From: Thelocarpon superellum
Lineage: Eukaryota
Reading direction: 5' to 3'
DNA: 33,909 bases
NCBI GenBank assembly: GCA_026025795.1
Contig: JAPEUG010000175.1
Location: 1 to 33,909, forward strand
Position numbers and translations under genes: made by a program. Shown here piece after piece: positions 24,989 to 33,909 of this stretch (position 1 is its first letter; each line of letters opens with the position of its first letter). The notes under the pieces were generated by a model. It had not been told where the DNA came from. It made no database searches and worked only from the letters and a program-made list of their open reading frames with translations.

Positions 24989-27496
<2,508 letters not shown>

Positions 27497-28380: not shown

Positions 28381-31182
28381 ATGGCTTCATCTCCGCCCCA
28401 CGATGAACAGACCACAACCTTCTTTGTGGGTCAGCACGAGACCAAACGAGTGCTGCCCGTCACCGGCGCGATGCTGCGCCAAGCACAAGATAGTGGGGTG
28501 AGTGGCGTTTGGCAAGGCGGGCGCGCGTGACGAACCGCAAGCTGATGGAGGAGCAGTATGACATGCTGACGACTCCGGTCACGACCCCTCATTACCACTC
28601 TCGCGTGCTGGCCCTGCTGTCCTCCCATCTCTCGCAACTCGGCGGCGTCGGTAACGGGGCAAGCAAGAAGCCGTCGGCCGCGCCCAAGTTCCCCACCCCC
28701 GTCATTCCACCCCTGAATCCTGTCGACACTCCGCTGTCTCCCTCCTCCACCATCTCGCAGCTCCTGGCCGTCGCCGCACCCTGGACCGATCTGTGCTCCC
28801 CCGACCCGCTGATTGCTGACCTCTCACGCCAAGTGCTTCGCCAGGAGGTGGCGTACGCGGCCTTTTGCGGCATCGGAAACATTATTCTCCCTGCGCCCAA
28901 GCTGCACCATCGTGACGTTCATGGCCGGGGCCTCACGCAGTATGGGCGGGCCGTGCAGGAGAGCCTGGTGGCCGGACCATATCTGGCCATCACCATGCTT
29001 CTGCCCATGACGGACCATCCCGACACGGATCCGGTCGAGGGTGTTGGAAACCTGGCCCCCTTTGCCCGCGAAGACTTCGTCGAGGAGGCCGAAGGTCAAG
29101 AAGGGCGGAGAGCCGACATCTTTGGCACGTGGGACGGGTGGAACCTCATCAGGACCGTGTGTAACTATAGCCCGAGGCTGTTTGTAGGTGAGATGGCGCG
29201 TCAAGAATGCGAAGCTGATCAACCGCTCGACCGCTCAACTTGCCCCCCGTCTCAACATCTCTCCGTGCCCGTCTGGCGATGATGACCACTGCTGATCGTG
29301 GCGGTGACCCACACAGGCCTCAGCATCCCTCGGCACCTCCCTCCAATAGCCGTCCAGAGCCGGTGGTTCTCCGAACCTCTACGTCTGATGGCCTTGGATT
29401 CAACCACTTTTCTGCGAAATAAGAACCACTACCCCGTCCTAGGCAAATCCCACCAAGCGCTCGTAGCGCGATACATGCGGCTGCGCAATAGTCCCTGGAT
29501 TCTCTTGTGTGACGTTGGACCCATCCCCCATAGCACAGGAGCGGGAGATGACGCCTCCACCCCGGTCGATGGCTACCACAGTTCCACGGGCAGTGGTGAC
29601 ACCAGCGGCGGCACGCCTACCCCATCCCCCAAACTGGCCCTCGTCGAGACCAACCGCTCTACGCTCGCTGAGGCCGCAGCAGCAGCGACGGCTGCGGCAC
29701 GAGCATCGCGGCGCTCCTCGACCGCCAGTCCCTTTGAGGATCCGCAGGCGCAAGCACACATCTACGCCCGCGGCGGCACCCCTATCAGCGCCACCAAACC
29801 GCGCAAAGACCCGACGCCGCATCTCAGCTACATTCGATTCCTGTCCCGCTCGCAGCCGGCCCACACCACCATCGAGCGCTTCGGGGCCGGATATCAGGAT
29901 TATTTGCAGGCGCCACTTCAACCACTCACCGACAACCTGGAGAGCATCACATACGAAGTGTTTGAGAAGGATCCGGTCAAGTACGACTGGTATGAGCGAG
30001 CGATGGCGGCGGCCTTGTCCGACTTTGACGACCAGAAGCTCAAAGGATCAGGGCCAAACGGAAAAATCGTGGTGGCTGTCGTGGGTGCTGGCCGAGGGCC
30101 GCTGGTCAATCGTGCGTTGAGAGCCAGCCTCGCCGCGGGGGTCAACATGGAGCTCTGGGCGGTGGAGAAGAACCCAAACGCCTTTGTCCTGCTGCAGCGG
30201 CACAACGAGTCCGACTGGGGCGGGCGTGTCAAGGTGGTAAAGAGCGACATGCGGTCATGGAAGGGACCGCCGCTCCGACCTCAGCCGGCCGTTGACGTTG
30301 ACGACCCGTACGAGAAGAACGGCGTGGACGGCGGATTCGGGCGCGTCGACATCATGGTGTCAGAGCTGCTTGGTTCCTTTGGCGATAACGAACTCTCGCC
30401 GGAATGTCTCGATGGCGTGCAGCACGTCTTACACCCCGAGCACGGCATCTCCATCCCAGCCTCCTACACGGCGCATCTCACCCCCGTTGCCGCACCCCGC
30501 CTTCACACCACCATTAGCTCTCGCGTCGCTGCCGATCCCACTGCCCCGGAAACACCTTACGTAGTGATGCTGCACGCGATCGACTACCTGTCCACGGCAC
30601 CAGTCCATCCAACAGCTTTTTCCCCAACCACCGCGTCCACTTCCTCCCCCGCGCTCCCGCTTCCCCTGGTCCAACAAGCCTGGGAGTTCGCTCATCCCAA
30701 TCCTATCCTTTCGACCCCCCACACTGACAGCCTCGCGTCCAACGCCCACAACACTCGCTTCGCCCACCTACGCTTCCCCTGTGCCGCGCGCGGCTCCTGT
30801 AATGGCGTGGCGGGCTACTTTGAGACGGTGCTCTATAGCCATGTTGAACTCAGCACGCGCCCTGACACCATGGACGCGAAGAGTGCCGACATGATCAGTT
30901 GGTTTCCGATCTATTTTCCTTTGAAGGTGGGTTCGCCTCTTCTCCTCCGCCGTCTTGCCCTACCCTACCCCGTCCTCTGCTAACATGATCCACGCATGCA
31001 CGAAGACACCGCTCTATTTCCCCGACTCTTCCGAACTAGACATCAGTATCTGGCGACAGACAGACGACCGCAAGGTCTGGTACGAGTGGATGGTAGAGGC
31101 GTTTGTGGTGGTAGATGAGCATCGCATCCGTCTTGGCTCCTCGGAATTGCATTCGTCCAAGAAGAATGGGTGCTTGCGATGA
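28381..31182 (+). CDS. PRMT5: Type II protein arginine methyltransferase PRMT5 (Skb1/Hsl7)
   Basis: Exons 28381-28497, 28557-29187, 29317-30926, 31006-31182. QEVAYAAFCG, YQDYLQAPLQPLTDNLESITYEVFEKDPVKY, VVGAGRGPLV, VEKNPNA, VSELLGSFGDNELSPECLDG, SWFPIYFPL, KVWYEW. Confidence 0.96.
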
Positions 31183-31560
31183 TATTAGAGGAGTCCTCCT
31201 TTAACTATCCATTTGATCGAGGAGGTGATTTTGTCGAACACCCCCCTACCCCCTCCACCCAAGCGTTCTCGTTCGTCCCTTTCGCTTGATTCTGGAACGC
31301 CGGCGGCGCAGACTTTGGGCGTGCGCTATGCTTTATAGCAGTCTCCACATGTCAGGATACGAGGTTTCTGGGCTGGTGAGGGACAGGCTCAGCCTGAGGC
31401 TGTTCGTATATACTTACATCCTTCTCCTGACCTTTCGACACATGACCTCTATATCACGGCTCTTCCAATTCCCTCCCCCTCATACACGCTCCCCACTCAT
31501 TCCTCCCACCAACGTACTCCCGTCCATCCACCAACCCGTCGCCGACTCCATCCAACCACC

Positions 31561-31617
31561 CTGTCCCCGTTAGCAACGCTCAAGACCCAGAAAGGACACA
31601 CTCATCTAAAAAAAAAG
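31561..31617 (-). other. Telomerase RNA 3'-processing signals: U-rich Sm-like site plus 45-nt terminal intron with non-canonical 5' splice site
   Basis: Minus strand: CU9AG (31617-31606), then AUGAGU (31605-31600), branch point GCUAAC (31574-31569), 3' splice site CAG (31563-31561). Confidence 0.8.
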
Positions 31618-31888
31618 TAGTGCCGTCCCTTCCCGTCCGCGAAGACGAAGACGAGAAGAGACAGCTGGGGTGCCTCCTCCTCGGCACATGGAGATTCCTT
31701 CCCTCAAATGGCACCTCCGCCACCAATCGACACTTCGATTCGCCCCCGCCGTGGCTCCGTCCGGTTCGAAAGCGTGCTTCTCGTCGCGTGTCCAGCTCCG
31801 ATCTTGTCTCGTTCTGCGTCGCTCGGACGTCTCGCTTTCTCGTCGCGTGAAAGTGCCAGTGGGTTCGTGTCTGGTCGCAAGGGCGATA

Positions 31889-31945
31889 GCAGGAGCAGAC
31901 AAGCACAAAGCTTTGAGCCTCACCCGAGAGAGGTCCCGCTCCTAC
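31889..31945 (-). other. Telomerase RNA CR4/5 three-way junction (P5, P6, P6.1)
   Basis: P5 GUAGGAGCGG/CUGCUCCUGC; P6 GACCUC..GAGGCUC; single A linker; P6.1 AAGC-UUUGU-GCUU; GU linker. Confidence 0.85.
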
Positions 31946-32364
31946 CCATCGTGCAACCCTCATGTCGGGACGTGAGCCGTAGCATTTCCACTCGCTGAGA
32001 TCCCGAGATGGTGTCCGACGCGTCAGAAAGTGGTGAGCGTTAATCAGGGCTGGACATCGAAGATTCACTTCTCGTAGACCGGAGGCTGGTTGGACTGCAA
32101 GAAGAGGCGAATCTTGCGTCGTACGTTGGAAAGGTGATATCATCAGGAGTGGAAATCCTCGGAATTGCTCGTTCTCCGTCTCTCATATCTAATGCCACCC
32201 GGACGGTCCAGGAACATCGCCGCGAGTCGATTTCGTCCTTCCTCGAATCGGTCATCCCTCCAAGATGCTGTCGTCCATGCTGTATTGCACACTCCCCACC
32301 GTCGACCAGGACACCCGAAGGCGCCTGAGATTCTTCTGTCTGTTCGTATTGGCGGTACCCTCAG

Positions 32365-32465
32365 GGACTAGTCTTTGCTTCCTCTTCCGTCGAGCTGCCA
32401 TGGAGATGACACCGTCGAGAAGGGCATTGAAAAGCGGGCAAAGGACATCCTCAAAAACCGCTTTC
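32365..32465 (-). other. Telomerase RNA pseudoknot candidate
   Basis: S1 GAAAGCGG/CCGCUUUU; loop UUUUUGA; S2 GGAUGUCCUUUGC/GCAAAGACUAGUCC (bulged). Confidence 0.72.
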
Positions 32466-33683
32466 GTCTCCATTGAGGAGGTAGACATCCGCTCCGTCTG
32501 TGACGACAGCGTGGATCAAGTGTCGACGCTCACCTGTCAACCCCAGTGCAACCCACAAGAGGAGGCGATTAACGCGGCTGATCGAGACCCCAGCTAGGTC
32601 CCTTCGGACCGAGCCGGGCCACATCGTATGGCTACTGCCTCAACGTGGGTCCGGTGAGGGAGCTTCATCATGAAGATGATACGGATGAGGATTGAGGTGG
32701 ATAGCCGGGCCATAAACAAAGCACCGTGGTGCCCGCGAGGTGGGGAGAAAGGTACGGGACGTCTTCCAGCTGCACCAAGTCCACTCCCGGGTCAACCCAC
32801 AATGAGCCACCGCCCCTTGCGCACCCCAAGACCGAAACCGCTAGACACCTCGGAGTCCCGCACACGGTCCTTCTGAACACAATCGACCATCTCTCGATCC
32901 GTGCCACTCTCTACTCGACCAGATGAAATGAGACGACTGGAACGGACGTCATGCTTGATCTGACCACTCCACACCCGCTTTCCTTGTATGTTCAAAGCCA
33001 TCGGACGTGCTCGTCGCGGTACCAATGATGAAGCGGTGAGCTCCAACAACGAGTACACAACGACGATCACGAGCGATAGCAAAGACAGTGCCACGCTGTA
33101 GCGATGGCGAAAGCAGGCCTGAAGTGTTCTGTTCGTAGGCAAGTATCGTGTGACCGAATCCTGGACGTGTTCATGTCTCATCTCAGCCGGGCAGGAAGAG
33201 AGTGGCAGGGTCGAGAGGGGTTCGGTTATTGAACAAACAGAAGGATCTTGTCACGAGACAGGCCATTCGGCGATTAGGACCCGCAAAGGGGGGTTGCAAA
33301 CAACGACGGCCATCGCAGAGGAACCCGAGAGCGACACGGTCAGCATCAACGGAAGATCCCAAAGGCGGTCCATGGCGAGCCACGTGCCACCCGACCTTTC
33401 TCACCGACTATCGCTCAATGACTTCCTGCCGTGCTCCACATCAACAAGACATCCCAAGATGATCAGAGTATGGTGTCCAGCCATAGACAGCGACGCATTC
33501 TGTTTCAAGAAATGCATGCCATCCATTCTTTGACGCCGAGAGGCTCTGGACGTCAACCTCCCCTTTCGTACCTCTCGCATAGGCTTGGGCAGACGAGGCC
33601 CGTCGCGAATGCAAGGGATTAATCGAGGAGGCGACAACTGTGACGCGAAACTGGTCTTCCGTGGGGAAGAAGTCGACGATAGA

Positions 33684-33692
33684 TTAGGGTTA
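33684..33692 (-). other. Telomerase template 5'-UAACCCUAA-3' (1.5 repeats complementary to TTAGGG)
   Basis: + strand ttagggtta; lies 2 nt downstream (minus sense) of a 15-bp helix. Confidence 0.85.
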
Positions 33693-33909
33693 AGTTCCGA
33701 CACCCATCCTCCCATACCACCACGTCCAAAGTGACATCGCCAGTAGAATCTGTGCATCCGAAGAGACCATGCCATGAGGCTCGTGGGCCAGACTCTACGG
33801 CAGATGCCCGGGTAGATATGGGAGGCTTTGAGGCATCCCGGCACGAGGCAGAGAGATGAGTGCCGGAAGACTATGGGAAGGGCGAGCCGCGGTGTGGTAT
33901 AGCTCCCTC

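Follow-up and report, generated by a model that had tools for sequence, protein, structure and literature searches.

At the 3′ end of a telomerase RNA (TER) gene on the minus strand of the window (the whole 33,909-nt stretch of DNA that was analysed) lies a 45-nt intron whose first base is A instead of G. Very probably this element is a terminal intron, in the precursor of a Pezizomycotina telomerase RNA, that serves as a 3′-end processing signal of the type found in Neurospora and Aspergillus. Its 5′ splice site (donor), AUGAGU, has the A at +1 and keeps U2, G5 and U6, and departs from the exact consensus hexamer AUAAGU by a G at +3. As the mechanism itself has been known since 2015, what is new here is confined to a single changed base in the donor and to the lineage of the host. 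The finding adds one more lineage, near the lichen genus Thelocarpon, to those with an A-first signal for spliceosomal cleavage of telomerase RNA, and provides a natural case of a donor with G at +3. It helps in annotating where fungal telomerase RNAs end, and leaves the picture of how those ends are made unchanged.

The gene is identified by its three-way junction, which matches the Rfam family of Ascomycota telomerase RNAs (RF02462) with 54.1 bits against a gathering score of 30 (E = 7e-13), and by a conserved block, UCGGAACUUAACCCUAA, that holds the template UAACCCUAA. All 17 columns of this block are invariant in the five TERs that were aligned (the window and four relatives, including L006). 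Just 217 nt separate the template from base 33909, the last of the window, so the 5′ end of the gene and its promoter may be absent from the contig. In the other direction, the terminal intron is found 855 nt downstream of the three-way junction. A low-threshold Rfam search also returned a SNORD100 C/D-box-like match inside the TER gene (32622–32678, minus strand), which is at chance level (17.9 bits against a gathering score of 58, E = 3.7).

Table 1 Coordinates of the telomerase RNA gene, its terminal intron and the adjoining 3′ elements. Positions are those of the window.
Feature	Position	Strand	Remarks
Telomerase RNA (TER) gene body	31606..33909	-	Extends between the window edge and the predicted cleavage site; RF02462 match, template block and terminal module
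Conserved block UCGGAACUUAACCCUAA holding template UAACCCUAA	33684..33700 (template 33692-33684)	-	Template for TTAGGG repeats
TER three-way junction (P6/P6.1, CR4/5-like)	32366..32461	-	RF02462, model positions 1285-1381 of 1858
Terminal hairpin, adjoining the U-tract on its 5′ side	31622..31665	-	17+2 base pairs
Single-stranded 3′ tail ACUACU9AG	31606..31621	-	16 nt; unpaired in MFE and centroid folds
U9 run, candidate Sm/Lsm-type site	31608..31616	-	Only T9 in the window
Telomerase RNA terminal 'half-intron'	31561..31605	-	45 nt; relatives' introns 47-58 nt
Non-canonical 5′ splice site AUGAGU	31600..31605	-	A at +1, G at +3; positional counterpart of AUAAGU in 10/10 relatives
Branch site UGCUAAC	31569..31575	-	Branch A 31570; (G/U)GCUAAC at the matching place in relatives
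3′ splice site CAG	31561..31563	-	First AG past the branch; 9 nt from branch A; relatives 9-13 nt

Direct reading of the minus strand gives the anatomy of the junction base by base. C31617 precedes the U9 run, which ends 2 nt before the donor, with A31607 and G31606 sitting between the two. A spacer of 24 nt then separates AUGAGU from UGCUAAC, in which GCUAAC occupies 31574–31569 with U31575 before it and the branch A is nucleotide 36 of the intron, and a further 8 nt, ending in CAG, complete the element. The original prediction had read U9AG, AUGAGU, GCUAAC and CAG here as a 45-nt intron starting with A, and all of its coordinates are correct. A composite pattern of these signals (TTTTT, N0-4, ATRAGT, N15-45, GCTAAC) matches once on both strands of the 33,909 bases, at the site of the terminal intron, and in none of 100 dinucleotide-preserving shuffles. 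The T9 run also occurs once in the window, and at least once in 6 of 100 shuffles. The bare hexamer ATRAGT is unremarkable, with 11 matches in the window against 18.7 expected; since it is not enriched alone, the signal resides in the combination of elements and in their position.

We then compared this region with relatives from metagenomes. Scanning metagenome contigs with the junction motif yielded 40 loci, 11 of them TER-like, and 10 of these 11 pass the RF02462 gathering score, the truncated locus L034 falling below it. The ten loci with downstream sequence make up four sequence groups (L001 = L004; L006 = L031; L011/L013/L015/L025/L027; L038). Each of the ten contains exactly one array of a U-tract, AUAAGU, 26–35 nt, (G/U)GCUAAC and 8–12 nt ending in AG, located 540–943 nt past the junction. 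Their U-tracts range from U5 to U11 and end 0–5 nt before AUAAGU. The window departs from these positional homologues at intron position +3, where it has G and all ten relatives have A, and at the base that follows CUAAC in the branch motif, which is G in the window and U in all ten. The comparison was made with a motif-anchored table, a MAFFT alignment of the 3′ regions having set the donor of the window out of register. Of the 61 loci from the metagenome and prokaryote scans together, 10 contain the extended junction motif; the same junction pattern matched 21 loci in contigs of prokaryote genomes, none with the extended motif, and these were set aside as chance matches.

The relatives also fix where the RNA family ends. 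L006 and L031 align to the full RF02462 model (positions 1–1858, 676.8 bits), and the last position of the model falls on the base just 5′ of AUAAGU, so that the curated 3′ end of the family coincides with the exon/intron junction. The element had been placed at the 3′ end of the TER gene from the sequence alone, and this placement is upheld by the RF02462 match, by the equivalence of the module to that of the relatives and by the family model ending at this very junction in L006 and L031. Within the largest group, whose copies are near-identical, the U-tract varies in length from 8 to 11, and in L025 the loss of one base relative to L011, L013, L015 and L027 has turned the acceptor UAG into AAG, the next YAG lying ~20 nt further on. 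Both kinds of variation fit a weak constraint on an acceptor that would never be used.

Qi et al. reportedly described, in 2015, spliceosomal cleavage of the same type for the telomerase RNA of Neurospora crassa. [quoted passage not shown] Changing this A1 to G restored splicing, with the spliced form becoming dominant and the cleaved form dropping more than 10-fold, and an A. niger intron supported cleavage in S. pombe, with ends mapping within the Sm-binding site (PMC4299874). Conservation across 13 Aspergilli covers AUAAGU, replaced by AUACGU in A. nidulans, together with GCUAACU and CGGC3-5U7-12 (PMC3603654). According to a review, spliceosomal cleavage is how every known telomerase RNA of filamentous fungi is processed (PMC4993307). 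The premise that Aspergillus TER 3′ ends arise by spliceosomal cleavage at an A-first donor agrees with both Aspergillus papers (PMC4299874, PMC3603654). The proposal that AUGAGU is a variant of the AUAAGU signal also gains support, as the donor stands where the relatives have their module, A at +1 is the determinant and +4 already varies in Aspergillus (PMC4299874, PMC3603654). The variant itself is absent from all ten relatives and from the variants named in the available portions of these two papers, namely AUAAGU and AUACGU (PMC4299874, PMC3603654). A full-text literature search for AUGAGU with telomerase, a search that did not extend to the alignments of Qi et al. 2013 and 2015, returned no relevant report; among the AUAAGU matches listed, the only telomerase-related papers were PMC4299874 and PMC3603654.

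On this basis we propose a mechanism that borrows three of its parts by analogy from published work on other species: the restriction to the first splicing step, the precise mature end and the binding of proteins. RNA polymerase II would read past the mature end into the intron and a second exon, and the spliceosome would assemble on AUGAGU, UGCUAAC and CAG. The first transesterification would free exon 1, the telomerase RNA ending at G31606, and would leave a lariat made of the intron and exon 2. Because the intron begins with A instead of G, ligation of the exons would fail, and the cleaved RNA would be released. The terminal hairpin (31665–31622) and the single-stranded U9 tail would then be the likely Sm and/or Lsm-type platform that shields the end, possibly after trimming by a few nucleotides into the U-tract. 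The G at +3 would be a neutral variant of the usual A.

The window shares with the Neurospora/Aspergillus type its setting in the terminal intron of a Pezizomycotina TER, an AU-first donor right after a U-rich single-stranded tract, a GCUAAC branch site, a nearby YAG and a short intron (45 nt against 47–58 nt in the relatives). It differs in the donor, AUGAGU where AUAAGU and AUACGU are reported, and in the G that follows the branch motif, which is U in the GCUAACU of Aspergillus (PMC3603654). With S. pombe TER1 (Box et al. 2008, via PMC4299874) it shares a 3′ end predicted to be made by the first splicing step beside a U-rich site of Sm type; S. pombe TER1, however, has a canonical G-first donor and its second step is slowed by other features of the intron (PMC4299874), whereas the window is A-first, and the 9 nt that separate its branch A from the acceptor are a short, ordinary distance. 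In S. cryophilus and S. octosporus TER1 a donor variant likewise blocks exon ligation, in this case GUCAGU with hyperstabilised U6 pairing (PMC4299874). That mechanism needs C at +3 together with G at +1, in contrast to the G at +3 and A at +1 of the window (PMC4299874). Taken together, the AUGAGU of the window and the AUACGU of A. nidulans (PMC3603654) suggest that the mechanism depends on four bases of the hexamer (A1, U2, G5 and U6) instead of all six.

What G at +3 means for this donor can be judged from the introns of the same organism. The PRMT5 gene of the window contains two verified introns, 28498–28556 with the donor GUGAGU and 29189–29316 with the donor GUGAGA, whose ends are set by breaks in the Pfam domains and an in-frame stop. 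Both have G at +3 and A at +4. These two PRMT5 introns make up our whole donor statistics, a listing of introns by frame continuity having proved too noisy in GC-rich DNA. As G is the usual base at +3 in the organism's verified introns, its presence in AUGAGU is mechanistically unremarkable.

The same stretch contains a second formal donor register that went unmentioned in the original prediction. GUGUGU, at 31601–31596 of the minus strand and 4 nt downstream of the A-first donor, agrees with five of the six positions of the donor consensus. An AC dinucleotide also stands at 31564–31563 (minus strand), 6–7 nt past the branch A. Suppression genetics with A1 and C-last introns indicate that an A-first intron may in principle ligate to a C-last acceptor. 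Such A-first/C-last ligation is also hinted at in the discussion of PMC4299874. It is conceivable, then, that another pairing of sites completes splicing, with either GUGUGU at 31601 as donor or A1 joined to the AC; the element would then be an ordinary or alternative intron, or would yield a mixture of cleavage and splicing that tunes the level of telomerase RNA, and the mature 3′ end would lie elsewhere. We consider this very unlikely on several grounds. The A-first donor is kept by all four groups of relatives, and the second donor has no counterpart in any of them (GUCUCC, GUCUCU, GUGUUC or GUAUUC, and GUUUCC at the corresponding place). A simple count of base pairs with the 5′ end of U1 favours the A1 register, which forms 6 Watson-Crick and 2 GU pairs out of 9, over the GUGUGU register with 4 Watson-Crick and 3 GU pairs. 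In addition, the Rfam model ends at the junction defined by the A-first donor, and both PRMT5 introns have A at +4, not the U that GUGUGU would place there. A more specific version treats AUGAGUGUGU as a two-register donor, in which the A-first register would give dead-end cleavage and functional telomerase RNA, GUGUGU or AC ligation would give full splicing and inactive RNA, and the choice of register would set the RNA level in this lineage; we attach very little weight to this idea.

The reading as a cleavage signal is accompanied by a hairpin and U-tail architecture immediately upstream of the donor. The last 90 nt before it fold with −40.5 kcal/mol (z = −4.95), and none of 200 shuffled sequences folds as well. 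We folded five relative sequences that cover all four groups (L001, L006, L013, L015 and L038), and in four of them (L001, L013, L015 and L038) the MFE or the centroid structure repeats this plan, with a stable hairpin at the end and a U-rich tail left unpaired behind it; the fold of L006 places the U-tract in the loop of an additional small hairpin. The hairpin and U-tail arrangement is thus conserved, with conservation of the tail among relatives limited to the U-run. The window reads CGGCACUACU9 where the Aspergilli have CGGC3-5U7-12 (PMC3603654), and its CU9AG does not match the Sm consensus AU5-6GR literally as that is quoted in PMC3603654. Kuprys et al. regard the U7-12 tract, within whose length range the U9 of the window falls, as the Sm site in Aspergilli (PMC3603654). 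By its U-run, the U9 tract is a candidate site of Sm and/or Lsm type, binding by Sm, Lsm or La proteins being indistinguishable at this level. G31606, the last nucleotide of the exon, was taken as the mature end in the original prediction and is better understood, by analogy, as the predicted end of the cleavage product; since ends from the A. niger intron were mapped inside the U-rich site (PMC4299874), trimming back into 31608–31616 is possible.

The hairpin and the U-tract also feature in a different account, namely that the motif is a relic or a coincidence and that the 3′ end is produced by another route, such as termination and exonuclease trimming against these two elements. The departures of the donor from consensus at +3 and of the branch context at the base after CUAAC would be in keeping with decay of this kind. 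Set against it are the composite motif, found once in the window and never in its 100 shuffles, the same order, spacing and position of the elements in all ten relatives, and the statement in the review that spliceosomal cleavage is general among the known telomerase RNAs of filamentous fungi (PMC4993307), which together make this account highly improbable. Equally hard to sustain is the idea that the donor is in truth AUAAGU and that the G at +3 comes from an error in the assembly or from a rare allele, for although the site is seen on one contig only and all ten relatives carry A at this position, there is no sign of error in the data and G is usual at +3 in the verified introns.

The host of this cleavage signal was placed with the help of a neighbouring gene. 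Prp43, a DEAH helicase encoded without introns on the minus strand at 24989–27307, is 87% identical to its counterpart in a metagenome-assembled genome of Thelocarpon impressellum. In a midpoint-rooted tree of this one gene (37 sequences), the window groups with Thelocarpon (support 100/99), and the pair falls inside a nine-row clade with Peltula, Phylliscum, Chaenotheca, Sclerophora, Piccolia, Sarcosagium and Caeruleum (98/95). A Thelocarpon-like lineage reportedly belongs to none of the classes that Qi et al. surveyed in 2013. That study presented telomerase RNAs from six classes of Pezizomycotina (PMC3592445).

Two genes with links to the spliceosome are located near the TER gene. One is Prp43, which acts in spliceosome disassembly and discard, and the other is PRMT5 (28381–30983, plus strand), an arginine methyltransferase of Sm proteins, which is convergent with TER, its end and the 3′ splice site being 578 nt apart. 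A tblastn search with the PRMT5 of the window gave no match at the 11 TER-like loci, whose available flanks share no synteny; with no PRMT5 beside these relative loci, the adjacency of Prp43 and PRMT5 to TER is probably a coincidence.

Possible signs of the organism were also seen in a wood-decay metatranscriptome (X1, share 0.05), in which four short contigs matched the region 30000–33909, one of them well. This contig of 165 nt covers 31733–31897 with 1 difference at a depth of 2, and lies inside TER, outside the U-tract and the intron; no contig of the run reaches into 31540–31700. The match suggests the presence of this organism, or of a near-identical one, in that wood-decay sample. Possibly the TER gene is transcribed there, carry-over of DNA being an alternative source of the contig. 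Finally, a canonical-looking intron of 92 nt that could be due to chance (31417–31326, minus strand; GUAAGU...CUGAC...UAG) is found ~190 nt downstream of the predicted cleavage site, within the presumed second exon of the precursor.
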